A DNA stretch of 62,164 nt, counting the filler. It is 15 parts of 15 records of this genome, joined end to end, with 100 filler letters (N's around TTAATTAATTAA, not from the genome) between each part and the next. Parts side by side here need not be neighbours in the genome. Positions count along the whole stretch, not along the records: positions 50,746 to 56,621 come from SRR9670534_92; 14 more parts are not named here. One strand, 5' to 3'. This document shows, one piece after another, positions 2,973-61,965 of the stretch. Numbering within the stretch: the first letter of the stretch is position 1; each line of letters begins with the position of its first letter. Under the pieces are notes generated by a model. That model searched no databases and had not been told where the DNA came from. It saw only the letters and a list, made by a program, of their open reading frames with translations. Both the position numbers and the translations under genes were made by a program.

Positions 2973-3223
2973 ATTATGATCTTATTAAATTTAACCCGCA
3001 ATACAATTCGGATATCTTTTAATTTTCGCATTAATATATATAAGTAGGGTAGCACCTGTTATGTACTGATTTAGTCGTCGTTACACATATTGTAATAGGT
3101 GTCAGTATCATTGTTACTTTAACTTCAATTGAATGTCACTATTATGACTATTTTTCCTCTGTACGACAATCCTTACCAATCCTTGTTTAATGTTTTGTTT
3201 TAGACGAGCATATTCAAGTGGGT

Positions 3224-3487
3224 ATGCCATATACTTTGGTTAGCACGAAAATTCGCGTTGAAGATGGTCCAACGAACGTTGGTGACGAAACATCAGATCC
3301 AGAATTAATGTCATTTTTGAAAGCTGAAAAAAAGCAATTGCTTGGCAACAATTTTTATGAATACGTAACTCAATTGCGTCCAAGAGAGGTGCTTGATTTG
3401 CTGGAATCAAAAGGCTATAAAGTCATAGGTGTTACCGGTGTTGGACAGACGGTGGTATGGACACTCCATAAGCCCGGAATACTTTGA
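3224..3487 (+). CDS. GCHFR: GTP cyclohydrolase I feedback regulatory protein (GFRP), intronless CDS
   Basis: MPYTLVSTKIRVEDGPTNVGDETSDPELM...LGNNFYEY...TGVGQTVVWTLHK aligns end to end with animal GFRP. The ATG is at 3224. Confidence 0.95.
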   Translation: MPYTLVSTKIRVEDGPTNVGDETSDPELMSFLKAEKKQLLGNNFYEYVTQLRPREVLDLLESKGYKVIGVTGVGQTVVWTLHKPGIL

Positions 3488-3663
3488 AGTTTACTTTTAA
3501 TTGCTGTTTTTCGTTTTTAAATTTTATAGGATTTTTGTAGATTCTAACAATAAGTATATAACAAAGATTTTTTTATAACTAGTCCTTATTAACTTTGCAT
3601 TATTGATTAATAGATTGAGATGGCATAATGCAGAAAAGAACAGTAAGAATGAAACCTAAATAA

Positions 3664-6600
3664 ATGGAGATTAGGGAAACAGTAGCCTGTTGGGGATGTG
3701 GTAAGCTGGGACAAAATGGGCATGGAAGTGATTACAGCATGAAGTTCTCCGGAAAATGTGCTTTGCCAGACATACCTGGTAAAATCAACATCATGGCAGC
3801 TGGGTCCAGTCATACTGTTGTTGTCACAGGTACGCTTACCGAATATGTATGTTGGACGTTTCATAGACGTAGTTACTACTAGTATTGGGATATTATTTAA
3901 AATACTGTTCATTTTTGGCATATTCAATAGCGACATCTTATTGCTGCTTGACAATTATTATAAAATATTATTTAAATTGATTGTCATTTGCTGAATCACT
4001 GAAATTTGTTATGGGCCCTAAAACGTTATAAATCCTGCTAAGGTTGTTCATGTTTTTATTACGGTTTACAAGGTAAAAATTTTAAGTTTTGAAACTTTTT
4101 CATAAATTTGATAAAGTTTTGAAATTGTGAATTATAAACGTTAACTATAGATTAATTTTTACATGAATGAAAAATTAATCTATAGTTTTCATAATGATGT
4201 AAAGTTTAAATAAACATTCACAAGAAATTTAAACATTAGCTAAGGGTTTAGTGGTTATGAACAGTTGCCAAAGCTTGCTCTGCAGCTCAGTGCCGTTACA
4301 TTTAATTGGTTGTTTTAAAATAAGCCGTATATTTTTTCCATTATCTCATTAATTGCGGTCTTCGCTGGGATAATAGGTAGGATACCTGATCTTATCGCCA
4401 GAGGTCCAGTGATGCCAACCCTTCCATTACAATATATTATATGGTGTTTTTGTTTTGGGATGACGGTTAATTAGTGGCAACAATGAGGGTAGGTACCTAC
4501 GCAGGTTTTAGTGTTAGGTATCTGCTATATTCAGCAGCATTCAGCAGCCGTTAATTAAGGGATAATTTGCTCACTGATGTTTTGTGGATAGAATAAGTGC
4601 AGAGCAATGCTGTTTGGTGCCAGGCTGCCAATTCTGTCACCATTTCTGGCTTTGGGCCTTGTAACATGAACTATCTTCCCTTTTCCATATGTGCATTGCG
4701 TTATTAATAATAATCGTCAAGCCGCAGTAGGATTTACCATCCCACTGAAAAATAGATCCAAATTTGCCTTATATTTCTATTGTTATTAGGTAGTAAATGG
4801 TGTTCTTTGTTTAGATGTAGGACGGGTGTTTGTTTGGGGAAATGGAACCTGTGGACAGTAAGTGGTTTACAAGTACTAACAAGCAAAAATAGTGTTTTAA
4901 ATATGAAAGTGCATTATTAATAATTGACTTTGACAAATTTGCAAGGTATTTAAATTTTTCACATTGCTTGTTATTGTTAAACAGCGGACTCTTTTACGAA
5001 CATTGGAAAGTTGGGATAAAATTATCGTAAACAGTTAATGCAAGGGTTCTGTAGGAATTAACATTAATAAGTGCCGCTCGGTTAGCATTTTTCTCCATTT
5101 CACATGTATTAGAGAAGCATCCAAGTGGTCATCATAATTTTACATGACAACTCCTTGAGAGAGACCTGACCTGATCAGTTCATCACCAGGGCTTGGCATC
5201 TAATTTGTAGGGAACGAATAATTTGTCCAAGGGATAATAAAGCTAACAGAGAGGGTTAATATGCAGGACTTGATGCCACGTGGGACCTAATCTTAAATTA
5301 CCATGGATGCTGGAATGAAATTGAATTGACTTTGGTAATACGTCTACCATAATTGATGAGGGTGATCAACCCTTTTAGGGTAGAAGGCTTATTTGTGATT
5401 AGGAAGGCAGCCTGCTAGTGTTTCTAGCTGCCCAGTCTATGTACTTACATCAAATTCCACTAAAATACTTCGTTGGTACAGTGTTGTAGCTGTAATTAAT
5501 CGAGACCGACAGGGTTTTGGTAACAGTCCTGGTTGTGATAATTACTTGCTTCTTGGTGGTTGGCCTTTCTTTGTAACACCATACTCTAGTTCATTACACC
5601 ACATTAATAAATAACAGTACAAGTAATAAGTAGCAATCTTGATCATGATCCCAACCTTAGCTGGCAACTTGCTGCTCCTGGGGAGGTTTTAAAAACTACT
5701 CTCAAGGAAATTGATTTTACTACTTACATACCCTTTTTTGCTATGGAAAGAGAGAGGATTAAATAGTCAAAAATAATAAATACATTAGGAAAGGATACAT
5801 AGAACGAACCCACCTTGCTTCCATTTCACATGACCTTACACTTAGGCCTTGGCTCCCTATTCTTGTTTCCGTTCTTTCCAACCTTGCTTGAGAAAATGGC
5901 TTTTTTTCATTGTAGATTGGGTCTGGGAGATTGCCAAAATTACAGTACACCGCAAGAATTAGCAGTACCAACGAGGAACAATGGAGGAATTACATGTGTT
6001 AGCTGTACCTCTAATTGCACAATGATTCTTCTGAGAGATGGTACAATTTTGTGGTTTGGAATGAAATCGTGTGCAGACAGGAAGAGCAGCATCTTCCCGG
6101 GAAAGCCGCATCATGTACAGGTGCGTATTGAGGGACATAGGGCAGTTGGTTGACCTAACCTTTCATTGTCTTTTAATTTTGTTTATTAGGCATCACCCTG
6201 CATTTTGTCTGATCATCTGGGAATACGGTACAAAGTTGAAAAAGTCTCCTGTGGAAATCATCATTGTCTCATGTTGACATCTCAAGGATCAGTCTTTGCC
6301 TTTGGGTAAAATTTAATTAAATACATAAATATCGTATTGGAAAAGGTTTTCGGAATAAGATAACCTATTTATGGTTTTATAAAAATTATGAAATTTTTGC
6401 CTAAATTTAATTTTCATCTTAAGTCAACTTCAACTCCAAAATTTAATTCTCAAATTTAAAGTTATAATCACTAAATTCGTAATAAAAGGTTTTGATTAAT
6501 TTCAAGATTTTAAGTTTTTAAATTTTAATATTTCATTTTAATTTTTTAAATTTTAATTTTTTTAATTTTAAATTTTAATATTTATTTGCACACTTATCCG

Positions 6601-13577: not shown

Positions 13578-13712
13578 NNNNNNNNNNNNNNNNNNNNNNN
13601 NNNNNNNNNNNNNNNNNNNNNTTAATTAATTAANNNNNNNNNNNNNNNNNNNNNNNNNNNNNNNNNNNNNNNNNNNNATGATTGTGCTTGCACTGTATTA
13701 TTAATGACAAAC

Positions 13713-16700
13713 CTGTATGATCAGTATTAGAGGTGGTTGCACTGCTAACATTTGGTGAAAGAAAACCAGGATTGTTGTTTGACAAAGCCAATGTGTTAGG
13801 ACATTTCCTATTTCCACTTGACGTACTTGGATTTCTAACCAAAGATGATCCTGACTGACCAACAGATCTTGGTTGGCTAGTACCAGGGCTATTATTATCA
13901 ATGCCAATTAAATCTTTTTCTTTAAATTTAACTGATTGGGTGTAAATGACCAAGTCCGACAATTCTTGTGCAACATCGGTTTTACCGTAGTACTTCTGTT
14001 GCTGGTTCTGAAGAATTTGCTGTTGTTGGTGTGGAAGATTCTTGTCCTGTGCTGATGTTCCTGGACTGCTGGATACAGGCTCAGTAATCAAAGTGGATTC
14101 ATCACCTCCACCACTATCAGTAGCAGAAGTTTGAGATTTAGTTCTATTTATAGCAGATTTTCGGAAGTCTTCCATAGCCTCTGCCTTTTGAAACTCCGTT
14201 ACTGGATCAATATGAGTACTTGGACTACAAAGTTCAACAACGTACGACTTGGAGTGACCAATATCTTCATCATATTCATCAGATAAGTCATCTTCATCAT
14301 CGTAATCGTCAAATTGCTCCAAGTTTCTGCTATTAGATATCTTTTTGGTGGACCTTTTTGAAGTGATAGCAGTGCTACTGGTTGTTCCAATATGTGGTTC
14401 AATTGGACAAAATTTTTTGTTCTTTATTAATATTCTGTACTTAAGTTGATTTGGTGATGGTAATTGAGAGTCGTCGTTTAAATCATCATCTTCTATATAG
14501 TCCCTGATTAATTTTTCTCCAAATACGGACTGAAACAAGCATATTAAATAATTCAGAACTACATTAGAATATAACAGCACTAACATATTTACCAAGAGCA
14601 TTTCTGCAATTTTGACTTGCTGATAAAGTGAGCACCTATTTTCTATGGATAGGATGACAGGAAATGGAGATGCCACAAATGCGTACCTGTCAATGGTCTC
14701 CAATACATCCTTCAGGGGAACTTTGGTAACGAGTGTGTATCCATGGTAAATGAGAGGAAGTCCATCGTCGCCATCCCAGCAATCAAGTTCCACACATCTA
14801 CAACCAGTCAGCAGTACTTCTCTATAAATATCAACTGAAGATTCGCCTTTCAATTGGTGTGCTGTCAAATACGTATTGTGAGAACTGGCAATATAGTAAT
14901 GAGAAAGGGCATAGTCCATTTCACTGGAATCGTAAATTTGATGTTCGTTAAGAAATGCAAAATTGTCTTTATCCATAAAATATTTAGCAAAGCCTTCAAA
15001 TGATAAACATAATTTGTCCCTCAACTTCGGATCTGGTTCGTGTATCTAAAAGTACAATGAAATATTTTTGCTAATTAACAATTATTAATTACGTAAAAGG
15101 AATTTATATATTATTATATAATAATAATTGCAATTATTACCAAAATAAAATCACCAATCTGTTTGTCACTGAGGTTCTCCAATTGATGTTGATGAATAAA
15201 TCTTTTAAACTCATCAAATGTAACAACCTTTGCGTTAGAAGCCTCCATACCAGCACAATTACCAATAATACTAGATACAGCAATGACATCACAAATTCGT
15301 TTGGTCTCATTATCAGTTGATTGACACCATAAGTCTTCATCGTTATTTCTTGTCAACAAACCTATAAGTTTAAAATTTAATAACATGTACTTTTTAATAA
15401 CTTAAATACCATATGGAGAAGAGATTTCTGAAGAAATTTCACCAAGAACAGGTGGTTGATAATTTCCAATGGAAGATGCAGGCACTGAAAATGTGTTGAA
15501 GATCTCTTTTATATCTCTCCTGTTTCTAACCATAAAAGACTTAAACAAATCAACAAAGTCTGTGAACTGCATAAATATGGCTGGATCTAGCTTATTACAA
15601 AGACTTCCTTTACTACTGGCTTTGGAACCCTTACGAGCAAGCCTTGTAAATGATAGAGCTTTTCTAAAAACATTTTTTGGATAATCTTCTGTTAAAATGT
15701 TGGGATCAGATCTTCTTTGCTTTGGCAAGGTGTCTGAGGTTACAGATTGAGCCTAAAAGAAAAATATCTAATAGTTCCAGTGAAACTGAATCTAACACAT
15801 AAACTGACCACTAGAGCAGTTACTGACGGTCTAGACCTAGGCCTAACAAAACCACCAAAACTTATCTGCCTTATCAGTCCAGATTTACTGCTACTCCGCC
15901 TACTGTTGGTGGGCGTGACTTTCTCAGCAGCTTGTGCATCATTCATGTATAACAGGCTAGGTGCCCATTGTCTGCCGCCAAATAACTACAAATGTTTCAT
16001 TTAGCATGACATGTTATAATACCAAGAAAAAGAACAGAAATTACGGTGACAGCTTCTGTTGCTGTAGGGCCATGACATTTTTCATCATCGAAAAATGCCT
16101 GCAAATAGACTTCTTTCAGCCATTCAAATCTTCTATCAATGGCTTCTTTATAGCGAATGGTAGCAGCGTGCAATTTTTCCAAAGCATCGCACCAAATTTC
16201 AGCAGTTTGAATTGGTATTAGAAAGTACAAACGCTTGTTTTCATGCAAAGTAGCACCATAGCTAAGAATCACCATATGCATTTTAGGCTGATCCGATTGA
16301 ACATAAAATTTACTGATAAGTTTGGTTTGATCAAAATCCTTTACAATTGTGATATCCTTTACTGTTTCCATATCAATATAACCCTCATCAATGGTTACGT
16401 AATCAGTTTTTAGAGCGTATTTTCCATAAAGACCTATTTGGCTAATTTTTTTGCTGTTCATCAAAATAGAATTTGCATTGGCACCACTATCTGGACTATT
16501 ACCATCCTTCCATGGTGGTCTTCTCCAACTTATTAGAGTGTTAGTTTGTTCTACTTTAAATAAAACCAAAGCACTTCTTCCAGTTTGGGGATCCCAATTA
16601 ATAGCTGTACAACCATGCTGAATGATTTGCTTGGTCCAAGAATTAATTTGCGTTAATTCAAGATTTAACTTTGACAAGCAAGAAAATGGCGTATTAGGAA

Positions 16701-34749: not shown

Positions 34750-36849
34750 ATGACACACTGTCAGCCTATCATAGTTACCCCCAAAATGTCTAAGAAACCT
34801 ATATTTCCAGAAGTGGTGAAAGTTGAATCAGTTCCAATTGTCCCAAGTGTTCCAAGTGTTCAAAGCTGTAGTAGCATATACAAAAGTATTTATTAATAAA
34901 GTTTTAGCTTTCAAAGTTTTTGTTATTATTTTATTGTTATAATATATGTATTATAAGGTTTATTAATCAGTAATATGTGTAGCTTGAAAATTGGTGTACA
35001 CTCCAAAATTTGGAGTGTAGGTCACACCAAATTAATTTAAAATTCAAGTTGAAATGTATTTTTCAAAAATTGAGATTTACATTTAAAGTTCAAATTTATA
35101 GTTTAAATTTTAATATTTAAATTTAAAGTTTAAATTTTAAAGTTTATGTATATATTTAAAGTTAAAGTTTTAAACTGCGGCTAAAATTATTTTAGTCAGA
35201 TATTGTGTTTATTAATTAATAACTGATGTTATCATAGTTTCCATTTTTATGTCAATTATTACTACTAAGCTTTCAATTTTTCATAAATACTTTTATAATT
35301 TCTTTACAGTAATAGTATGTGGAGAACCAGGAGTTGGTAAAACTGCACTTGTTCAAAGGTTGATAAAAGATACATTTCGCAGCATTTCAGCCCCAGATCT
35401 TAGGGATGGAGTTGGATTTGAAATCACAGAAATGTCAATTTATTTTTAATAATGTTGTTTTACAAATATTTCAGAAAGATTTTAAACTTTTAAAACCTGT
35501 TAAAAGTGTGAACTTCAAACCTTTATCAAAAATTGAACTTCTATAAAATTACAAGTTAAAAAGACTGTCTATAATCAATTAGCTATAAAGTAGCTATTAT
35601 TATAGAATTCGAGAAGTTGATGGCAGAAACATCATGGCAGAAATATGGGATATGATTGGTACTGAATACCTTGAAAAAGATTTAATCAAGAAATTTTACC
35701 AAAAGGCTGATGGGGCCATCTATTGCTTTGACCTATCCAACTCATCATCTGTAATGAGTTGTGTTAAATGGATTGAAGAAGTAAAGAAGTTAGTTGATCC
35801 CAATTTAGTAATCATGTTGGTTGGAACAAAAGCTGACATCCTTCAAATGGATGATGATATTCATCAATATAAACACATTAAAGAGATGCTACCAGCAAAA
35901 ACTAAGTCAAATATAGGTATTTTGCCCGCAGCAATATATTAATAAGATACCAATTATAAATTTATTTTTTTATATTTTAATATACCATAATATACAATGT
36001 TATTAATATATTATTTACTAAATGTATACATAGTATGTATATATTATTTATATATATATATATTAAATTTTAATATATACTGTTAGTATGCAAAAATATG
36101 GTGCACTAGATGATAACTGTTATTAATAACTTATTATTATCAAGTCAGAACTAATGGATGAAAGTTCATATTAATAAAAATAATAAGCACTTATATGAAA
36201 TTTAGTTCGATTTGTACATAATGGTGTCCTAAGACTTTATATAAGAACATCAGCCAAGGAATCAATAAACGTTGAGGAGACATTTATGGAAATGATCAGG
36301 CGTAAACTTTTTATACTTTGCATTATAATGTATACATAGTATATATTGTATACATAGTATATTGTAATATATTGTGTTATGTGATATGATGTAATATTAA
36401 TAGCAATATCATATTGAATGATGATCATACTGAATTAGCAAATTTTTAACTGTATACAAAGTTGTAGTATATTGTGCTATTGTTGTAAAATACATTGTAC
36501 TATAAATACTTCATTGCAGTAATAATGCTTACAATTAGTATGGAGTACTACTACATAGTATATTGTACTTTTGGAATACAATGTATTCAATACATGTATA
36601 ACAGTGCAGTAGTTTTTCAATGTTTATTATTTGTAATTCCGGCCTATCATTCATAATAATTTCGCTAATATTGATAAATATTATTATTAATAATGTACTC
36701 TAGTATTGAATAGATCTAATCAAATGTATCATTATAAAAACTATTCCTTAGAAATCTATCAAGTTAGAAGTAAAAAGAAACTTATAGAAACTAGACAAAA
36801 GAAAAGGAAAAGACTTGGGTTGCTCAGAAGTTGTTGTGGATTGAACTAA
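34750..36849 (+). CDS. Atypical Rab-like small GTPase A; exons 34750-34885, 35310-35433, 35606-35916, 36206-36301, 36752-36849
   Basis: YKIIVCGEPGVGKT, WDMIGTE, VGTKAD, RTSAK and a C-terminal basic patch with CCGLN. Junction phases are consistent. Confidence 0.88.
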
Positions 36850-37492
36850 AAAATTACATCTATATTTCTATACTATAATGAAAACTATTTTTAAACAATA
36901 ACTAGACATGTTAAATTCAGAATTTAAAATTCAATGTCATTGCCAAAGATATTTATTAGTAGTAGCACATTATATTTAATACATATAATTTAATAATAAC
37001 AATTATAGTAGCAGCTATTTCAAGTGTTAGTACAGTGGCATTATAATGACACTCTATATAGTTGTAAATGAATGTAATTACACTGTCATTGTTACAAATT
37101 TTACTAATTTTAGTTAAGTGCTGATAGTTATGCTAATCTACAATGAATCATTATTCATATATGAATACTATAGTATCTGCATCCTGGTTACATTTCTTAA
37201 TAAAAATGTTTACTAAAATAAGTTTTAGTTAGATGGGGGCAGATTCAGTGACTAGATAAATTGTTATATAGAGTGTCCACTTACAGTGAATCATTTTATC
37301 CTTCTTATCATATGTCATAATTACTATTACTAATAATAACTACTAATATCATATTTGGTATTACTATATATTTCAGGATATGAAACATAATCATTTAATA
37401 AGTTGTTATGAAAATATTTATAAAAGGATGCAAAAGTTTAAATTCTAAAAACTTTGCCAAAACAATACCTTTGTTATTACTATAAAAGCATC

Positions 37493-39743
37493 ATGGCTGA
37501 AATAGAAACTTTATGTGCTGATATGGTCCAGGTTAAACCTATTGACCAAGGCTCCAATTATATGTACAAAAGTATGGAAACTTATAGTAAATTCAAAATA
37601 ACTGTATTATATTCAAAATAATTTAACTTTAAAAAACTTAACCTTAAAAAGTGTTAAAAAGTTTAACCTTAACATTAATTCAATTATTTAACATTTTAAA
37701 TTTTAATTCAAATTTTAAAGTTATTTCAATTATTTAACATTTTAAATTTAGAACTTAAAATTATTTCAGATACTTAACTTTTTAAATTTTAAAATTATTT
37801 CAATTATTTAACTTTAATAAGAATTAATTATTATTATGTAATATACTATTTTTCAGTAATAATATGTGGCGACGCTAAGGTTGGCAAATCTGCACTTGTT
37901 GAAAGAATAGCAGAAAATAAGTTTTCTTATGTTTATGGACCTTATCTCAGAAATGCCGTTGGATTTGAAATGAAAGAAATGTAAATCTTTATTAATGTAT
38001 TATTGAAATTAAAGTTAAAAAAAACAAACTTTATAGAACAAGAGAAATAGATGGCAAGGAAATCATAGCTGAGATGTGGGATGTGATTGGGGCTGAATAT
38101 CTTGATGGAGAGTTTGTTCATAAGGTCAGTCGTTATGAAATCTCATTCATGAACTTTATTTTTACCAAAGCAGTGGGTGCTATGTATTGCTTTGACTTGT
38201 CAGACTTATCAACTCTAAAAGGTTTTGCTAAATGGATTGAAGAAGTTACAAAGGTAGCAAATCCAAATTTAGTTATCATGTTGGTTGGAACAAAATGTGA
38301 CAAAGTTATGACAGATAATTTTCATCAAAGGGAACGTATATCCAATATGTTTGATGTTATAACACAGATTAAATCAAAAATGGGTAATTTTTAGATGTTA
38401 AATATGAAAGGTTATTAGTTCAAAAAATATTATATATTTGATGAAATATGAAATATTCAGAATATTAATTATAGGTAATGTAATTATACCATTTTACAAA
38501 ATTAAACTACATAAGACAGTTTATAATAATATATAAATTGTAATATTATAAGTACATCAATAATTATATTTCATAATATAGACACTATATAAAATATGTA
38601 AATAAATATTATTATTAAATATACTATATAATATAGTATAAATAATGCTAAAAATCTTATTATATATGGTAAATTTCAAAACCTTCATGTCTTTCAATGA
38701 AAATTACAATTTCAATTTAAGCAAATAAATTTAGTTCAATATTGTCAGTTATAATAATGTTATAATAAATATGACATTAAATCACTAAAGTTTAGATCAA
38801 TTTGAGGATAGTGGTATTCAAATACTTTATATGGAGACATCAGCTAAGGAACCAAAAAATGTTGAAGAAGCATTCATGAAACTAATTGAATGTAAGTTCA
38901 TCAACTGGCATTATTTGTTCTTAATATTATTATTATTAAAATATGATAATGGTTATACATTAATAGTAACACTATAAGTTCTATGTAGCCTTATAATATA
39001 TAGACTATATAGTACAAAGTAGTATATTGTAATATATGTAGTGCACTCTAGTATTACTAGTACAGTTAAAGTAGTACAGTACATGTAGCTATACCTATAA
39101 TGTAGAATCTATAATATTTATAATATATATAATATCTATAATCTATAATATTTATTAATATCTATAATAATATATAATATCTAAATACTGAATATCTATA
39201 ATAATCAATAATATCTTTAATAGCAATAATACAATATATAATAAATGTAACATAATAGTTTAGTATATAAATTTTATATTATAATATAACATAAAGTTAA
39301 TATATTATATTATAAATTATTGCAAAGTGTTATGAAAGTATTGCAATATATGTAACTTAATATTCATATTGCATCTTACAAAGGCAGGACATTTCTTAGT
39401 AATCTATGAAGCACAAAAGCCAAAAATAACTGAGGAGGTATTAAATGTCACATCTGAGTCAGTCTCATGTGAGTCAGCAGTTGTTTCAGAAACTCAAGAT
39501 GAAGTCAATGAAATCATTGAAATGAAACAAAATGTAACTCAGGAGCTATTATTAAATGACTTATGTGAGTCAATCTCATCATGTGAGTTAATCTCAACAT
39601 GTGAGTCAGTCTCAGCTGAGTCAGCAGTTGTTTCAGAAACACAAAGTAACGTCAATGAAATCATTGAAATGAAACCTATTGAGACTCGAACAAGAAAAAA
39701 GAAAAGATTTCCAATGCTTATGAGTTGTTGTGGAAAGTACTAA
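37493..39743 (+). CDS. Atypical Rab-like small GTPase B; exons 37493-37571, 37857-37980, 38037-38383, 38796-38891, 39400-39743
   Basis: YKIIICGDAKVGKS, WDVIGAE, VGTKCD, ETSAK and C-terminal CCGKY. Intron positions match paralog A. Confidence 0.88.
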
Positions 39744-50645: not shown

Positions 50646-51176
50646 NNNNNNNNNNNNNNNNNNNNNNNNNNNNNNNNNNNNNNNNNNNNTTAATTAATTA
50701 ANNNNNNNNNNNNNNNNNNNNNNNNNNNNNNNNNNNNNNNNNNNNATTTATCTATTTATTTATTTATTTATTTATAACATAACATTGAATATAAAGCTTC
50801 ATTTATAGTACATTGTAACAAATAAGGCGTTGTATTAAATGTTATAGGAATGTTTTTACTTTAATTTGTAGATATGATTATAATTAATAATAGTGGTAAT
50901 ATAAACAATTGTACATAGATGGTTAATAAGAATTACTACTTATAAAATTTGTAAACTATAAAAATAGTAGAAATATCAACTTGCTTTCAACTTGTTTGTA
51001 ACTTAAAGTAAACAGTTTGAATTTAAAACATACGGATAGATAATAATTTCTAAAATGGATATGAACATACATAATATTTAATAATGTTCAAAAACTTAAA
51101 CATTAGAATAAAATTTTTAAAATGTTATGCCATGTATGGTTGTAATTTATGTAACAATACATAATTCATATTAACT

Positions 51177-51605
51177 CACATCACAAACAAATTTTAACAT
51201 TATGCAGTCCTGGTGCTTTCTGTATAAGCTTTGAAACAACTTTTGCCATGCTGGATAGCTGATCATTTCATCAAGCCAATCTGGTGCTGTTGGTAATTGG
51301 GCAAACAGCTGATCAGCTTTAATTGGATCAAAGGTGTTTTCTATCATTGAACTTAAGTGATCTTCTACAGTAGAGGTTATAGATTCTTCATCCTCACCCA
51401 TAATTTTCAAACATTTTATCATCACATTACATAATTGTCCTACAGCTTTGTAATTACTGGACAGCAATTGGACAACAGGTTCTGGAGAGCCACTAGCTTG
51501 AAAGTATTTTCTTAGCAATCCATATATGGTTGGCTCCATAATACAATCAGTCTTTGAAAACTCTTCCAAACACCATTTTTTAACATCTGAACCACTTTCA
51601 GCCAT
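51177..51605 (-). CDS. NELFCD: Negative elongation factor C/D (TH1-like), first coding exon (3' partial)
   Basis: CLEEFSKTDCIMEP, YFQASGSPEPVVQLLSSNYKAV, FDPIKADQLF and PDWLDEMISYPAWQKLF. GTGAGT donor at about 51176. Confidence 0.92.
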
Positions 51606-51713
51606 CTTGCCAACCTAAACTTTAAATCTTTAGTAATTTTCTGAAAAGTAGAAAAAACTCATCCTCAACAAAGCTTAATAAAAACTAATTCGTCCGTTAA
51701 GTAACAAAAAAAA

Positions 51714-54700
51714 CTAAAGCAGAGAGATGCTGGAAGAAGCACCATCGCGATTGTGAATTTTTGAATACATATCTCTGGCTTCGTTCAAAGCACACCATTC
51801 GTACCAAACATGATCTGCCTTAACCAACCTCCAAAAACAGATGTTGATAGTATCACCACCTTTTAGTGACATTGCTTCCTACAGCAGTAATTATATTTAT
51901 GGAGAAATATTAAGAACAATAAAAGCATACCTCAAAAGGAAAAAAGATGGGAAACCAGCTAATCATGTTAGGATTTAAAGTTTCATGCTCTTTCGGAATA
52001 GTACCTAAAATGGAGGTTCTCCTAAATATTTTCAAAATTTGTTTCAAGATCAACAATAATATGAAGACCTACTGATGATAACATCAGCATATAAGGTGGC
52101 TCGGAAAAAACCAGCTACTCCATGCAATACACAATCCTGGGAAATTTTGAAAGAAATCTTACCAAAACGTTCATTCGCCCTTGGATTACCGATTTCTGAA
52201 AGTGAACATTACCGCTATGGAATTCCATTTAATTAAATATTTAAATATATTATAATTTTCGTTTTGAAAACCAACCTGAATTGGGATGCGAAAATGTAAA
52301 TAACTTAGCTGGTTCAGCAATAGTATAAGCATTCTGAACATTAACAACATAACCTTGTTGAAAATTAGCCTAAAGGTTGATAAAATAGGTAAGTGAATCC
52401 CTCGTTAATTAACACATATTATTAAATAATTATCACCTTTCCGCCATGTTCATTTTTCCTATGCTTTACATCCGCAATCAATTTATGAGATTGAATTGGA
52501 GCAATAAAGGATGAGTAGGATTGAGGAATATATATAGCGTCACCTGCAAATAAAATGAAAAATAAAATCTCTATTTGATTTGAGGATGAACAAACTCTTC
52601 ATAAACTTTTCAGATCCATCCACACATTCAGGCGAAAGTTCGTTATCACCAAATGATCCAAGTAATTCGGAAACCATGATATCACCCTTTTCTTCAGTTA
52701 ACCAATTTCTTGTATCACTGAAAACAATTTCAACATCAACTCCCCAAACTTCCTCTTTCAGAGCATACAGGCTAAAACAAGTACTTATTTATCCTAGAAA
52801 ACGTTTCATTTGCTTCCTTACGTCATTATAACGTCAGGGTTCTTTTCAATCGCAAAAACCTTAACTCGAGCAAAAACTTCTTCAGCTGCTTCTAGCGCCA
52901 ACGTCACTAGTGGCCCTCTACCAGCACCAACAACCATAATTCTTCTATGGTAGTAAATTAATCAATTAATTAATTTGCTGTTTGAAATTGAAACCTATAG
53001 CTGAACTAATTAATCTTACAAGATAATTGGTTCACTGCTTCCCTGAGAGTTTAATTCGTCGTGGCGTCTATCCCTCATGTCTTTCAAACTTAACAACAAA
53101 GCCTAAAATTATAATTAATTACAAAAAATAGCCTTAAATTTAGGAGTTCAATTGCTATCGATGACCTCTCTATAGCGATTATACTTTTCGGGGCATTTTT
53201 CAAATACTTCATATGTTGAAATGTCCAAATTATCTCCCAAAGGTTGTAATGGAACTTGTAACAGGTCTTCCCAGCCATCGGAATGCTGTTCAAACTCATT
53301 CATTGGTTCCATTTGCTTAAAAAGGGATTATTAAAATATTCGACATAGTGTTTTTATTGAATCTCGTACTGAATGTAAATGTCGTAAATATTCATGAAAA
53401 TGTGCCAGTTCTTTGTCGGTAAAGCGCTCGTCTTTTTCATCTGGAGAAATGATTACATGCAAATTGGGTATTTGCTAAAAAACGTCAATGTATGTGCAAT
53501 GTTCAATAACTAAATATTTCTTATACAGACACACTCTAAAAAGATGTTGCAGAAAAGACTGATGATCCTTTCGTAACACCGGAAATTTTCTGGCATTGCA
53601 CAGGTAAACCCGGCTATTCATCCAAAGACCAATGACTGGTTCACCAATCCATCTTTGCAGTGCCAACTTCTCTTCAGGCAACTTTTTTGGTAAGTCAAGA
53701 AGAAGAAGAATTCTTGGCAAATATGAGCATAACGAACGGAATTTATTCCACCAATGCCATGATACATCAAATGGGTTTTCAACCTTCTCTGCAATCATTA
53801 ATAATACATTGAAAATCGTGTGATACTAGCATCTTTATTAATAATAATCATATGGTATTTCAAGTTGACATTTTCAACATTTATTATCTACATTACAAAT
53901 TTGCAACTTGTAAATTACAAGTACTATTGTATTGTTGCATTGTAGTTATTGTAGGATCTGTAAATTACAATGCAACATTACAGACTGTAACCAGCAATAA
54001 CTTGATATTTATTATAAAATACAATAGCAACACATTTGAAAACATTGTACATGCGACATCTATTAAACATTTACATGAAATAAACGTCCTACTATAGTAA
54101 CTGACCTTCAGAATGATTACTGGCCTTCATAGGAATTCGCATTAGTATCTAAGTAATATTATTGCAAATATAAAAAAAAAGATTAAAAAAAAATTAGTAC
54201 ATACCATGTAATTAGTATTGTGAGATTTGAAAGAGCTCATTATGCGTGCCAGGTTTTCACAATTTAAAGATGTTAAATTGATGATAACCCCACGCATGTT
54301 CATACTAGCTGCCATGTGCAATTCTTGCAGGAGTGCCTAGATGTAACGTTTTATTATTAATAATTGGCAACATACAAAAGTTATCTTCAGAAAACACTAT
54401 AGGTACTGACTTTTTCTGAACTAGCTGCTAATTCAGGATCCGTTGCATCAACATTAATCCAGTGTGATGTAATACCAACTACATTCGCAGCATGTGTGCC
54501 AGAAAAATTTAACAACTCATTAGTATTGGTAAAATGTGGTAAAGACCTTTCCCAAATATCTTGGCTAGAAGGACCCGGAACTTCACTTCTAACCAACGGA
54601 ATTGCAACAAAATGAAATCTTTCACTATCCAAAGCATACTCAATGTTCTCGGGCAATGTATATTTCGAAAAGACACCATTACTGCAATCCAAGCCAATGT

Positions 54701-54743
54701 TAACATTAAAAGGTCTCGCACCAAAATCACCCTGTTCATTCAT
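51714..54743 (-). CDS. PRMT5: Protein arginine N-methyltransferase 5, complete multi-exon gene
   Basis: [67 protein letters not shown] and IHNRDG. The GT-AG introns traced are phase-consistent. Confidence 0.96.
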
Positions 54744-55008
54744 CTTCAAAAACTCGTCTTATAACCTATAACCTACAGAAATGACAAATTACAACACAAA
54801 ATTTAAAAAAGTTGAAAGTTAGCCTAGTCAAAAAACAAATAAATTTCACACGTATTAATTTTAATCATTGTCAAAAAATGGTCATTACAATATAAATACA
54901 TAATTAATAATTAGGTGTAATATAATTGTTATTATTAACAAAAAATCAACGAAATAACAAAACGAAATCTCAAACTTATTATTAGCATGTCATATAAACA
55001 AGAAATAG

Positions 55009-56233
55009 CTACGTAGCTAGCCAAGGGTTAGCGGCGATGACCTCCGGATCTTGTTCATTGTAATTATAAAGCAATTCTTCACCTATTTCAATATTTCTCT
55101 TAGCAAAAATGATTAACCTTGGGGATCCATCAACTTCACAAACCTTTGTTATACAATTAGGTTTTTTCCTAGAATGATTGAGTAATCGTCCATAGTATTT
55201 ACTTTCCGCAGTTGCATCAATACTAAAAGATATTAAGGTGATTTAAATTTTAAAACAAGATTATCAATTACCAATGGTTCTCATCTTTAAATTTAAAATA
55301 GTAAATATAAGAAGGGTAAGAAGTGAGATTCTGTCTTTTTTGTTCTGCCAAATATTCCTTCTCCCTTTCTTTGCCTACATTCCTAAGAAGTAAATCACCA
55401 ACATATTCCACGACGAAATCCCCTTTTTTGAATGGTCTGGTGGCAATTATACCTCTGCCCTTTTCATCAAAATCCTTTACTTCAAGACCAGATTGTTCAT
55501 AATTTCGAATCTTCACGTCTAATTCCTCAGCCCTTTCTTTCTAAATTATGTATATCCAGAATCAAGCAATCAAACACGTTACCATGAAACATTTTCATTG
55601 AAAAGCGACTTAATTTAAACAAATAGGTACACATAAAAGTAGATTACTATTATGTACCTTTAATGTTTCTGCTGTTTTACGGTTGCTACGACGAACTGGA
55701 AAAAATTCAGTAATACTTTTCTGTGAATTGCTTAAAGAATTGATGGTGTTCTTTTTCTTCCGTTTTGTAGACTTTTTCTCTTTTAGTTGCATATTCTTTA
55801 GAGAACCTCGACGACCAGATGAACCAGATTGTTTTTTATTGTCAATGAAGTGAATGACTTTCCATTTTTCCCCATGCTTCGCATCTTCGTCATTATTAGT
55901 AGAATTAGCATTTGTACTGCTATCAATAATTACGGAGGCATCTGTATTAGATGCGTTGCTAACGGCTTTTCTTGCTAACGGCTCTTCTATTACAATGCCA
56001 TCATCAATAACATTTAATTTATTTCCTAAATGGCTATTGTATGTATACATACATTACCATAGTACAATAATAATAACACATGCTATATTATATGTACGTA
56101 AAGTACATGTGCATATACAACAATAAAATTGACGCAGTATTGAAGCAGTATACTATAGTACACAGGGTATGTACAGATTATATACTTACCCTATGTATTC
56201 GATACATTGTATCAATTTGATACACACATACAT
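55009..56233 (-). CDS. KMT5A: Histone H4K20 monomethyltransferase SET8/PR-Set7 (5' exon tentative)
   Basis: PIP-degron QKSITEFFPVRRS, KGRGIIATRPFKKGDFVVEYVG, YIYYF, IDATAESKYYGRLLNHS, ELLYNY and NPWL*. The ATG at 56233 is inferred from a phase-2 intron. Confidence 0.9.
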
Positions 56234-56539
56234 ATTTGAGGCTTAATTAATCTTATCCATAATGTGTAATAACGAAGTGCATAATTACCCTCAGAAATTG
56301 AAATAATAATGTCACATATGTCACATAATAATGATATTCATATGTATCGCATACAAATTCGAATTTCTACATCAATGGAAACAGATGTACTGAGGTATGT
56401 CATATCGGTAGCATTCGGTAATAATTTGGTACATGGTATGTATAATACTATAAATTTTATGTATAGTACTGTACGTACATGTACGTACTATATATTATAC
56501 CTACGTACGTACTATTGTGCGTACTGTGTATTACATACG

Positions 56540-56621
56540 TACCGTACTCCAATAAACGCCTCCCTTTATGGGGTTTTTCAACACTAATTGAGAAATAAGC
56601 GCCTCCCTCGAATAAACGCCT
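56540..56621. mobile_element. Second copy of the TA|CCGTA...AATAAACGCCTCCC element end
   Basis: The AATAAACGCCT motif occurs three times and is shared with 33289-33372. Located at a contig end. Confidence 0.65.
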
Positions 56622-56771
56622 NNNNNNNNNNNNNNNNNNNNNNNNNNNNNNNNNNNNNNNNNNNNTTAATTAATTAANNNNNNNNNNNNNNNNNNNNNNN
56701 NNNNNNNNNNNNNNNNNNNNNTGCAATACTATACTATAGTAATGTATTGTAATTGTGGTTTGAAAACATAG

Positions 56772-57983: not shown

Positions 57984-59399
57984 TTAGCATAAATTGGAGT
58001 CTGTGATAAGATTGTATTTTTATGAATCAAACAAAGAGTGCTGAAATTTGATATTTTGCTGTTATCATTAGTAACAATTTCTGTATTAAATAATATTGGA
58101 TGCCATTGTTGATATAAAATATTTACTGATCTTTCATGGTCAATATGTAGGTCTATGTCATGTGCTAATAATGAAGAACTCAGTAATACTGATCAGTATA
58201 TTATTTAAAATTCATACTCTTATAACTTAGTTTTGTCAATACTCTACTTGTAGTAATGTAAAGTATTGGTCTGTTTGATATTTACTTGAACTTGATGTAC
58301 TATAGTACAAAAGCTTTTTTGTTTCATAGTATCCCATGTACATGACCAGTGGTCACTAGAATTATACTGGTATATTTGTATATTTGTGTAGAACTTTTAT
58401 AATATATTATTATAACAATAATGTTTATGTTTTTATTATCATAATAATGATAATAATCATTCTTGATATTAACTTTTTGCAGTATAAGTTTATGAAAATT
58501 TTTTATTACTAGTAATAGTTTAACAACTTGTTGTTGTTATTGACAAATCTATTGAATAAAATATCATGATTATAATAACACGTTATTATTAATAATAATA
58601 TTAATAATGTAATAATTATGAAAGGATATATGTTATAATAAAAGAAATTTAATTTATTGAATAACATAAGTTATATTATATAACAAAATAAGCATTCACA
58701 AATTAATACTATTTTAATAATACTAATAGGTATAGTATATACTAATGAATATTAATATATTTATTAAAGGCTCCATTATAGATGTTTACTACTCTGTGGG
58801 CTTATAGGGTGTCTCCGAGTCAAAAATAAACTTTTTTTGAAAATATATCNNNNNNNNNNNNNNNNNNNNNNNNNNNNNNNNNNNNNNNNNNNNTTAATTA
58901 ATTAANNNNNNNNNNNNNNNNNNNNNNNNNNNNNNNNNNNNNNNNNNNNTATTATTAATAATAATAATTATTAATTAATAGCAATTAAAATAAAAAGGCA
59001 CTTATTATAAAGAAAACTTCTGAAGCAGTCATGCACATTACCAAGGCTCTCTATACAATGTATAGTATAAATACTTGTTTCAGAGACCCTTGGCATAACA
59101 CATGCTCTATCAAACGTTTTCCTTATGATTTTTTATCACAATTTTTAATTGATTCTTTTATTTAATATTAGAATGCTTAACTTCTACACTGGAATACCTT
59201 AATTAGGTACATATAAATCACAAGAATTGTTGAGTAGTGATAATAGTTGAATCACTTCTCAGAGCGTGATCTGGTTATTTCCTCATTTGGGATACCTTTA
59301 ATATTATTATTATTTAATTAAGCCATAGCTATGCCCCTTTTCTAATTGGTTCTCTTGCTGGGCAGGTAATACCTGCCGTCTGAGAAAAAAAAACAAATT

Positions 59400-60437
59400 A
59401 TGAACACTACCATTATTTCAAATTTTTCAACTACCAATGTGGAAGAAACCCAATCACCACCAAATGCCATCAAAATCTTATTAGTCAGTGTAATTTTGGG
59501 CATAATTTTGAACCCCCTGATTTTATGCACCATTTTTTCAAGAAAAAATCTTCGTCAAAAACCTGTAGCTGTGTTCCAGGTAAGTTTGGCATTCACAGAT
59601 TTGGTGGCAAATATTTTTTGGGGTTTGAAGGTATACCTGGGCATAGCCTATCCCATCCAAATGGCTGAAATTTCTATCAAATACCATATTTGCAAATATG
59701 TTCAAGCCCTTGGATTCACAGCTGGCACTTGTTCTGCACACTGTGTTTTGATGAGCACTATCCATCGATTTGTTGCAGTTTCATTTCCAAGCAAGCTTGA
59801 TGTATACTTCACCATGAAGAGAACAATAGCTTTGGTAGCCATTGTCTTCTCTTGTATTTTTGTTATGTGTTTTGGAATATTTACTCAAATTGTATACATA
59901 AGTCCAGAAGCTCCTTGTGGACGCTTGGATAAACCTTATTTAGCCCAAATGTTAGCTTCGTTATTATCTTATATTCCTATACCAAGTATTATAATCTTCA
60001 CTGGTATTACTATTTTTAAATTTATTGCCCAAAGTAAGAGGGTAAATAGAGGGGCAAATACCCAAAGTCAACGCAGACAAAATAGACTAACTGTTATGAT
60101 GTTAGCAATAGCTATTGCTTTTATTGTTCTCAATTTCCCATTGGTTTTGATAAGAGGTGTTGTTTTTCCATTGGCAATGGCCTCTGGCGATTCAGAGCAA
60201 ATTGCTAATGCTAACATCAGCTTAAATGTTGGATATCTGTTCTTCTTTTTCAATTTTGCTGTTAATTTTTTAGTCTATTTAAGTACTAATAAGAACTTTA
60301 GAGATGAGTTTTTAATGATGCTTAGGGTACGATCAGTCTTTGGTAATGTTGTTGGTGTCACTAGTGTTGGTGCCAACAGCTACAACTCGAATCGTGGGAC
60401 TCAGCAAAATAGAACAACAAATTCTGCTATCAAATGA
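59400..60437 (+). CDS. Intronless class A (rhodopsin-like) GPCR, paralog 1
   Basis: Seven hydrophobic helices; TM1 GxxxN, TM2 LAFTD, TM3 C...HRF, TM6 LNFP and TM7 NFLVY followed by NKNFR. Confidence 0.92.
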   Translation: MNTTIISNFSTTNVEETQSPPNAIKILLVSVILGIILNPLILCTIFSRKNLRQKPVAVFQVSLAFTDLVANIFWGLKVYLGIAYPIQMAEISIKYHICKYVQALGFTAGTCSAHCVLMSTIHRFVAVSFPSKLDVYFTMKRTIALVAIVFSCIFVMCFGIFTQIVYISPEAPCGRLDKPYLAQMLASLLSYIPIPSIIIFTGITIFKFIAQSKRVNRGANTQSQRRQNRLTVMMLAIAIAFIVLNFPLVLIRGVVFPLAMASGDSEQIANANISLNVGYLFFFFNFAVNFLVYLSTNKNFRDEFLMMLRVRSVFGNVVGVTSVGANSYNSNRGTQQNRTTNSAIK

Positions 60438-60945
60438 ACATTGGTAGCATGAGTTACGTGATTTGCATGTAATTCGAATGAATGCTTTGACAAGTTGTAT
60501 TTATTAATAGATTATTATTAAAGCATGTATTTATTAATAATAATAAGCATTGTGTTAATTATTATTAAATGAAATTTAATATAAAAATATTATGTAATGA
60601 TATATGTCTTAATGTTATTATTGATAATGTATGTTTTGTATGTTTTCTAAATAAATAAAAATGTGTGCAAGTAAATAAGTGTCAAGTTAGTAAATAAGTA
60701 TCAAGTTATGAGTTATAGGCCAAGTTTGACAAACTTTCTCATTAATTAATAATAATGATTGTTTTCAGTAGCATATTAGATATGGCATATTTAGCTTCTT
60801 CATTTGAAAATATCCATTTTACAATAATCGTTATTATTAATGCATATCATTAATAGCATATTTCTGCCCAATGGATGTATTTATTATTAGTCAGAAGGAA
60901 ATATGTTCTAATTGGATATTTTTTACTTAACCTACGTGAGAAGTG

Positions 60946-61965
60946 ATGAATACAACAATTAGTTTTAATTTTTCCAACACTACCTTAGTCATACAATCAT
61001 CATCATCAAATGCTACCAAAATCTTACTGGTTAGTGTAATGTTGGGGATTGTTTTGAACACCTTGGTATTATGCACCATTTTTTCTAGAAGAAATCTTCG
61101 CCAAAAACCAGTGGCTGTCTTTCAAGTTAGCTTGGCATTTGCAGATTTGGTGGTAAATATCTTTTTTGGCTTAACAACTTACCTAGTTTTAACTTATCCC
61201 ATTGAGATGGCTGAAATCTTTCTGAAATACCATATCTGCAACCATGTTCAAGCTCTTGGATTTACTGCAGGAGCTTGTTATGCAAATTGTATTTTGATGA
61301 GTACCATTCACAGATTCATTGCAGTATCTTTTCCAAGTAAGCTTGATGTTTATTTTACCATCAAAAGAACTGCAGCTATGGTAGCTATTGTATTTTCTTG
61401 TATTTTTGTTCTATGTTTTGGATTGTTTTCTCAAATGGAGTATGTAAGTCAAACAATTCCTTGTGGACGCTTAGATAAACCTTATGTAGCTACCATGTTG
61501 TCTGCGTTGTTGTCATATATTCCTGTACCAAGTGTTATAATCTTCACTGGTGTTACCATTTATAAATTTATTTCTCAAAATAAAAGGGCAAAAAGAGCTG
61601 GAAATCTGCAGAATCAACGCAGACAAAATAGGTTGACTGTTATGATGCTAACAATAGCCATTGTCTTTATTGTTCTAAACTTACCAATGGCTTTAATAAG
61701 AGCAATTTGGTTCCCAGTTGCAATGGCTTCTGGAGATCCAGATAAAATAGCTGATGCTACTATTGGTGTAAATGTGGGATATCTTTTCTTTTTTTTCAAT
61801 TTTGCTGTCAATTTTATAGTATATTTGATTACTAACAAGAACTTTAGGGAAGAGTTTTTGATCATGATAAGAATAAGATCTGTATTTGGTAATGCTGTTG
61901 GTACCACCAGTAGCTCGAATCGTGGTACTCAACAAGATAGAATAGCAAATTCTGCTAACAGATGA
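60946..61965 (+). CDS. Intronless class A GPCR, tandem paralog 2
   Basis: Colinear and highly similar to 59400-60437, with the same motifs (LAFAD, HRF, LNLP, NFIVY). Confidence 0.92.
   Translation: MNTTISFNFSNTTLVIQSSSSNATKILLVSVMLGIVLNTLVLCTIFSRRNLRQKPVAVFQVSLAFADLVVNIFFGLTTYLVLTYPIEMAEIFLKYHICNHVQALGFTAGACYANCILMSTIHRFIAVSFPSKLDVYFTIKRTAAMVAIVFSCIFVLCFGLFSQMEYVSQTIPCGRLDKPYVATMLSALLSYIPVPSVIIFTGVTIYKFISQNKRAKRAGNLQNQRRQNRLTVMMLTIAIVFIVLNLPMALIRAIWFPVAMASGDPDKIADATIGVNVGYLFFFFNFAVNFIVYLITNKNFREEFLIMIRIRSVFGNAVGTTSSSNRGTQQDRIANSANR

Follow-up and report, generated by a model that had tools for sequence, protein, structure and literature searches.

SET8, PRMT5 and NELFCD lie head to tail on one animal contig as a candidate operon resolved by spliced leader trans-splicing

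A 62,164-base stretch of DNA (hereafter the window) contains a contig on which the genes for SET8 (KMT5A), PRMT5 and NELF-C/D (TH1; the gene is called NELFCD here) follow one another on the minus strand, with 265 and 108 nucleotides (nt) between them. We propose that these genes may form an operon resolved by spliced leader (SL) trans-splicing, at least at the PRMT5–NELFCD junction, and we hold this candidate reading tentatively, at slightly less than an even chance. The identity, intactness, orientation and spacing of the genes, and the motifs between them, are read directly from the contig. From sequence alone we infer that the genes are co-transcribed, that the acceptor-like sites preceding two of them are used and that the source animal has a spliced leader. 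An operon would fit the geometry of the trio and is favored by some features: the tight gaps, a poly(A) hexamer between SET8 and PRMT5, the hexamer-less 3′ side of PRMT5, the junction of GFRP with an RCC1-repeat gene on another contig and the co-orientation of neighboring genes.

Results

Three genes share one strand of a short contig

The window is composed of 15 short contigs (2–10 kb each) and 14 identical artificial linkers, and the assembly is heavily fragmented. Because the contigs were joined artificially, gene adjacency across linkers is not real. The contig that bears the three genes is itself real, and its main features are as follows (positions count along the window).

2873-2972, 50646-50745, 56622-56721 and 11 further sites: artificial linker, N44-TTAATTAATTAA-N44
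50746..56621: contig bearing the three genes, 5,876 bp, with an N44-TTAATTAATTAA-N44 linker at either end
56190-56233, minus strand: possible additional coding exon at the 5′ end of SET8, 44 nt, ATG at 56233; the intron after it measures 156 nt and reaches the AG at 56034 (300 amino acids in all)
55009..56050, minus strand: KMT5A/SET8 coding region, exons 56050-55658, 55540-55272 and 55222-55009, 291 amino acids, stop codon TAG at 55011-55009
51714..54743, minus strand: PRMT5 coding region, 14 exons, 653 amino acids, open in frame, ATG at 54743, stop codon TAG at 51716-51714
51177..51605, minus strand: NELF-C/D (TH1) exon 1, 143 amino acids, directly followed by the donor GTGAGT; Pfam TH1 1.6e-42, PDB NELF-C/D 2.7e-37
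50746..51176, minus strand: first 431 nt of NELFCD intron 1, ended by the contig edge

The original prediction, made on this DNA before the present analysis, had described three co-directional genes. Open reading frame (ORF) reading, Pfam matches on exons and the gene models bear this out: SET8, PRMT5 and NELFCD exon 1 stand head to tail, all on the minus strand of the one contig.

Both SET8 models, of 291 and 300 amino acids, are open in frame. Pfam SET was matched on two exons (3.6e-13 and 2.6e-6), and the domain is C-terminal and closest to KMT5A among the SET families. All 14 of the PDB matches to the middle exon at E ≤ 1e-5 are KMT5A, and the last exon matches PDB sequences of KMT5A at 7e-17, with KMT2A as the runner-up family at 1.1e-9. 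The SET8 stretch ITEFFPVRRSNRK aligns with human KMT5A LTDFYPVRRSSRK, the E-value of the whole exon being just 0.32; this stretch may be a PIP-box-like degron just before the SET domain.

The PRMT5 model was assembled by hand and then checked by script. All 13 introns are GT-AG, twelve of them 50–80 nt long and one 317 nt, and Pfam searches of the exons returned PRMT5_TIM (3.9e-24), PRMT5 (1.2e-20 and 5.5e-12) and PRMT5_C (6.8e-10), in the expected domain order of an N-terminal TIM barrel, a Rossmann methyltransferase domain and a C-terminal beta-barrel. The 653-residue model contains VVGAGRGP and a second, 15-residue stretch, presumably the PRMT5 catalytic motifs. PRMT5 is a type II arginine methyltransferase, and KMT5A/SET8 is an H4K20 monomethylase. 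As modeled, both genes look complete and functional. Across this gene set (51714-56050, minus strand) the 5′ splice sites are degenerate, roughly GTNNGT with variable +3 and +4 positions, and the introns are mostly 49–80 nt long.

Exon 1 of NELFCD covers Pfam TH1 positions 30–168 of 579, against about 580 amino acids for a full-length TH1 protein, and the window has no more of the gene than this exon and the first 431 nt of intron 1, where the contig stops. An exhaustive protein search gave 418 relatives, the closest at 44% identity; a word-indexed search among longer proteins returned no homolog, and the ESM Atlas gave sub-threshold, unrelated matches only. Relatives of NELF-C/D are also encoded at 77 metagenome loci, with a best identity of 47%, most of them distant.

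The gene content of the window (BTG, rhodopsin-type G-protein-coupled receptors (GPCRs), KMT5A and NELF) identifies the source organism as an animal, which by the best NELF-C/D identity of 44–47% has no close annotated relative within the searched data. To our knowledge, C. elegans lacks NELF. The original prediction had the source animal retaining both NELF and XRRA1. The animal does keep NELF; the gene called XRRA1 there is an LRR gene with LRR Pfam matches only, on a separate contig (44668-47796) and unlinked to the trio.

Spacing and signals at the two junctions

The gap lengths given by the original prediction are exact by stop-to-ATG coordinates, and the acceptor-like AGs it named at 54773, 54766, 51641 and 51615 are all present there. 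Splice sites were scored with position weight matrices (PWMs) derived from the cis introns that PRMT5 and SET8 have between them, 15 in all, and compared with the 6,154 AGs of the window. The features of gap 1 (SET8 to PRMT5) and gap 2 (PRMT5 to NELFCD) are as follows.

54744..55008, minus strand: gap 1, SET8 stop to PRMT5 ATG, 265 nt, 49% T
54860..54865, minus strand: ATTAAA, sole canonical poly(A) hexamer of gap 1, 143 nt past the SET8 stop and 92 nt before acceptor 54773
54824-54818, minus strand: GGCTAAC, in gap 1
54773..54792, minus strand: acceptor-like site gtaatttgtcatttctgtAG, with its G at 54773 and the PRMT5 ATG 29 nt further on, score 7.1, 97.4th percentile
54766, minus strand: weaker AG in gap 1, PWM score 0.3
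51606..51713, minus strand: gap 2, PRMT5 stop to NELFCD ATG, 108 nt, 45% T
51662, minus strand: start of an upstream ORF of 10 codons in gap 2, frame and length read from the sequence
51641..51660, minus strand: acceptor-like site gagttttttctacttttcAG, with its G at 51641 and the NELFCD ATG 35 nt further on, score 6.2, 96.0th percentile
51615..51634, minus strand: second acceptor-like site, ...aaagtttAG/GTT, with its G at 51615 and the NELFCD ATG 9 nt further on, score 2.8, 83rd percentile

If the trio is an operon, one transcription unit would span SET8, PRMT5 and NELFCD, with its promoter upstream of SET8. Three mRNAs would then be produced by 3′-end cleavage of the upstream cistron coupled to SL trans-splicing at an acceptor 9–35 nt before the next ATG. 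Cleavage usually takes place 16–24 nt after a poly(A) signal. At junction 1 it would fall about 20 nt past the ATTAAA at 54865 and, since it is expected within those limits, would leave a U-rich spacer of about 65–70 nt before acceptor 54773. The 92 nt from ATTAAA to acceptor fits the distances given for C. elegans (50–200 bp) and Trichinella spiralis (74–213 bp) in the available text of PMC7668243. Junction 2 would be of a short type without a canonical hexamer, using the acceptor at 51641 or the one at 51615, which lie 72 and 98 nt past the PRMT5 stop. The TAG of the 51615 acceptor doubles as an in-frame stop, from which the reading frame of NELFCD opens.

Poly(A) hexamers are distributed unevenly around these genes. 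A canonical hexamer stands 78–143 nt past the stops of GRX, GPCR1 and SET8, and PRMT5 is without one before the NELFCD ATG. The claim that gap 2 lacks AATAAA holds, and ATTAAA is absent from it as well; the first canonical hexamer after the PRMT5 stop is an ATTAAA at 51323, within the NELFCD coding exon. Two hexamers with one mismatch, ACTAAA (51634) and TTTAAA (51626), do occur in gap 2, both downstream of acceptor 51641. AATAAA is likewise absent from the 265 nt of gap 1.

A further close junction lies on another contig, where GFRP is followed by an RCC1-repeat gene.

3224-3879, plus strand: GFRP, whose stop ends at 3487, followed by the RCC1-repeat gene, whose ATG is at 3664; gap of 176 nt
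3204-3223, plus strand: acceptor-like site of GFRP, ...tgttttgttttAG, 20 nt before the ATG at 3224, score 11.4, the best of the set

The RCC1-like gene has an acceptor-like CAG (G at 3633) 30 nt before its ATG (score 5.9, 95th percentile), and the sole AATAAA at this junction (3659-3664) overlaps that ATG. The GFRP score of 11.4 is reached by just 0.4–0.6% of null positions. Other same-strand spacings in the window are 508 nt between GPCR1 and GPCR2 and about 1.1 kb between GRX and BTG, and the gaps of the trio are far shorter than these. None of six recognized gene pairs (from GRX/BTG, GFRP/RCC1-like, two Ras-like genes, the trio and the two GPCRs) has opposite-strand neighbors, in a small sample in which two pairs are tandem duplicates and gene recognition is incomplete.

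Splice signals, and findings that weigh against an operon

Most of the results in this section speak against an SL-resolved operon or withdraw support from it; the high scores of acceptors 54773 and 51641, the rise in acceptor scores at start codons and the poor donors of gap 2 count in its favor. We start with the acceptors, of which 54773 and 51641 score above the median of true acceptors (3.8; n = 15, leave-one-out range −3.3 to 8.5). Of 2,497 random ATGs, 10.7% had an acceptor scoring at least as well as that of PRMT5 in the 80 nt before them, and 15.5% had one scoring at least as well as that of NELFCD; a null matched for T content gave 12.6% and 17.7%, respectively. Because 10.7–17.7% of null positions in this AT-rich sequence match them, each acceptor alone is unremarkable, and the individual sites are within chance (p 0.11–0.18).

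Start codons as a group behaved differently from chance. Over eight of them (BTG, GRX, GFRP, two GPCRs, SET8, PRMT5 and NELFCD), the best upstream acceptor scores, found 13–77 nt before the ATG, were raised (Mann–Whitney p 0.005). A T-matched Fisher test gave p 0.010 for the eight genes and 0.018 for six genes outside the trio. This enrichment points to frequent 5′-proximal splicing and does not distinguish trans from cis; it is mainly due to GFRP and GPCR1, and introns in 5′ untranslated regions (UTRs) would explain it equally well.

The original prediction had seen no convincing donor in either gap. This is true of gap 2, where every GT ahead of the acceptors scores 1.6 or less, but false of gap 1, where the GTs at 54975 (score 4.1) and 54851 (3.8) exceed the leave-one-out median of true donors (3.4) and thus score like true donors. 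Moreover, GT 54851 together with acceptor 54773 would give a typical 78-nt cis intron. The 3′ ends raise a difficulty: no canonical hexamer lies upstream of the acceptor at junction 2 or at the GFRP junction, which leaves 3′-end formation of the upstream cistron unexplained at both.

The finer signals in the gaps are no stronger. The gaps were said to be U-rich, and at 49% and 45% T they do exceed the background of 35%; however, the first 108 nt after the stops of BTG, GRX, GFRP, GPCR1 and GPCR2 are much alike, with T contents of 0.34–0.50. Because these ordinary 3′ flanks are equally T-rich, we dropped U-richness as an operon signal. The branch-like motif GGCTAAC of the original prediction is present in gap 1 but occurs at chance level (2 in the window against 3.3 expected), and YTRAY motifs lie 46–56 nt from the candidate acceptors, as against mostly 9–45 nt in true introns. 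Neither gap folds better than shuffled sequences (z +0.39 and +0.40). GGCTAAC, YTRAY spacing and gap T content carry no weight, and fine motifs in general add little to the operon case.

Searches for the other expected components of an operon system were negative within their scope. Rfam at the gathering threshold and a tRNA scan each gave 0 matches in the window. Combined donor and Sm-site patterns, taken from the SLIDR paper, occurred there at chance (175 versus 173, 81 versus 64 and 0 versus 3.3), the strictest pattern giving 0 matches; by Rfam and these patterns, then, the window holds no SL RNA-like gene. PRMT5 or SET8 was found beside a NELF-C/D relative at 0 of the 77 metagenome loci (tblastn, E ≤ 1e-5), a negative that is weak because most of these loci are under 3 kb. 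Finally, tblastn with six homologs found no further NELFCD exons in the window, so that this member of the trio is known from exon 1 only.

Alternative readings of the close spacing

No sequence feature tells trans-splicing from cis-spliced 5′ UTR introns or closely packed promoters, and the strongest alternative draws on both of these. The three genes may be independent units, tightly packed in a compact genome, with PRMT5 and NELFCD each started from a site of its own in the gap or in the 3′ part of the upstream gene, and with acceptors that are unused or cis-spliced to short 5′ UTR exons, such as acceptor 54773 to donor 54851. Transcription units do overlap or abut one another in compact animal genomes that lack trans-splicing, and we regard this explanation as a serious one, at somewhat less than an even chance. 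The donor-like GTs of gap 1 and the chance-level scores of the individual acceptors count for it. So do the TATA-like AT-rich stretches read in gap 1, and the last 124 nt before the PRMT5 ATG, which are ATG-free and would permit a short unspliced 5′ UTR. Also, SET8 may carry a cis-spliced 5′ exon, so 5′-proximal cis introns may exist here: the alternative 44-nt exon ends in AGG/GTAAGTA, the strongest donor on the contig (score 9.6). If the 300-residue model is right, the first gene of the trio has a conventional, strong 5′ donor–acceptor pair, unmatched in strength in either downstream gene.

Gap 2 is harder to accommodate in this way. Its 108 nt would have to fit the PRMT5 3′ UTR and poly(A) signal as well as the NELFCD promoter and 5′ UTR, with no canonical hexamer among them, and the donor candidates upstream of its acceptors are poor. 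Any start upstream of 51662 would place the 10-codon upstream ORF on the NELFCD mRNA. In addition, three junctions of at most 265 nt, with no opposite-strand neighbors in 62 kb, look non-random.

The trio might also be expressed as a leaderless polycistronic or read-through transcript, with its downstream frames either reached through re-initiation or internal entry or else expressed poorly. Insects have dicistronic mRNAs without trans-splicing, and the close spacing and the missing poly(A) hexamer after PRMT5 would suit such a transcript. We nevertheless consider it very unlikely, as gap 2 holds an upstream ATG and neither gap a structured element; re-initiation is implausible after ORFs as long as the upstream ones, of 291 and 653 codons.

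Last, that the spacing is an assembly artifact, or NELFCD a decaying fragment, would be in keeping with the 2–10-kb contigs of a fragmented assembly and the lone NELFCD exon, but is most improbable given that the 14 exons of PRMT5 and the 3 of SET8 all keep the frame across GT-AG introns, that NELFCD exon 1 is open, matches TH1 at 1.6e-42 and ends at a GTGAGT donor, and that both junctions lie in unique sequence well within the contig.

Other features of the window

A GC-rich motif, CGCCTCCCTCGA(ATAAACG), occurs on the plus strand at two contig ends, 33310-33372 and 56552-56621, the latter on the contig of the trio. There are three copies in all, against 0 expected, and two of them are 49 nt apart. 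The motif probably represents a family of repeats where the assembly breaks off. We rejected it as an SL gene array, since it is without a convincing donor/Sm-site layout.

Elsewhere, two tandem rhodopsin-type GPCR genes (59370-61962, plus strand) are 79% identical over 300 nt and stand 508 nt apart. Two Ras-like genes are arranged in tandem at 35589-38391 (plus strand), and repeated low-complexity ORFs occupy 27051-29272 on contig 7. At 13678-15045 (minus strand), an open frame of 456 codons carries a PI-PLC-X domain (5.9e-54) and extends to its contig edge.

Discussion

Our analysis places SET8, PRMT5 and NELFCD in an arrangement that could be an SL-resolved operon, and the comparison with known operon systems rests on published distances as given in the available text of three sources. 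An intercistronic distance there runs between the poly(A) site and the trans-splice site and is not a stop-to-ATG distance (PMC7668243). On this measure C. elegans shows 50–200 bp, with a median of 129, and T. spiralis 74–213 bp (PMC7668243). A second source gives about 100 bp for C. elegans, 517 bp for T. muris, a median of 1 bp for the operons of Ciona and about 31–33 bp for Oikopleura (PMC7986045). The original prediction had taken gaps of about 100 nt to be typical of nematode and tunicate operons alike; C. elegans agrees with this, but the tunicates, at 1 and 31–33 bp, do not (PMC7986045).

Nematode SL2-type operons, such as those of C. elegans and T. spiralis, join co-oriented, unrelated housekeeping genes, as is the case here. 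Junction 1 has their layout, with a hexamer, a U-rich spacer of about 90 nt and an acceptor near the next ATG, and lies within the 50–200-bp range (PMC7668243). Junction 2 differs, having no canonical hexamer and being shorter than usual. The nematode operons are also known through SL1/SL2 RNA, the Ur element and spliced mRNA, whereas the trio is known through its genes, in genomic DNA. In the tunicates Ciona intestinalis and Oikopleura dioica, the spacing is very short, and the likeness would lie in a single ATG-proximal acceptor that marks both the 3′ end of one mRNA and the 5′ end of the next. Junction 2 is tunicate-like in this sense, with 72–98 nt from stop to acceptor and no separate spacer signal. 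Tunicate distances run from poly(A) site to acceptor (PMC7986045), and the gaps of the trio, counted from stop to ATG, are not directly comparable with them. It is because of these published distances that we liken junction 1 to the nematode type and junction 2 to a short type.

A third parallel is the chaetognath Paraspadella gotoi, in which operon candidates were called at spacings below 250 bp; a spliced leader confirmed about two thirds of them, 1,470 of 2,151 (PMC12460157). In P. gotoi, the leaders and SL genes came from RNA (PMC12460157). Its operons are enriched in broadly expressed genes (PMC12460157). Beyond these animals, SL trans-splicing is found in rotifers, copepods, amphipods, ctenophores and hexactinellid sponges, from which operons were unreported at the date of the source (PMC7986045). 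A literature search on spliced leader, operon and PRMT5, covering titles and the openings of abstracts, brought up no description of a cluster of this kind.

Taken more broadly, the trio and the GFRP/RCC1-like pair might be two examples of a genome-wide, SL-resolved regime of co-oriented, closely spaced genes in a lineage without described operons. Such a regime would combine two types of junction, one nematode-like, its hexamer about 90 nt ahead of the acceptor, and one lacking any canonical hexamer. We consider this wider proposal rather doubtful. The operon of SET8, PRMT5 and NELFCD is in any event a candidate of a well-known kind, and its practical value is as a flag for trans-splicing-aware annotation of the assembly. 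If it is real, the patchy distribution of SL trans-splicing among animals would gain one more lineage with operons. A component of the NELF-dependent pausing machinery would then sit inside an operon, which would bear on how promoter-proximal pausing and polycistronic transcription can coexist.

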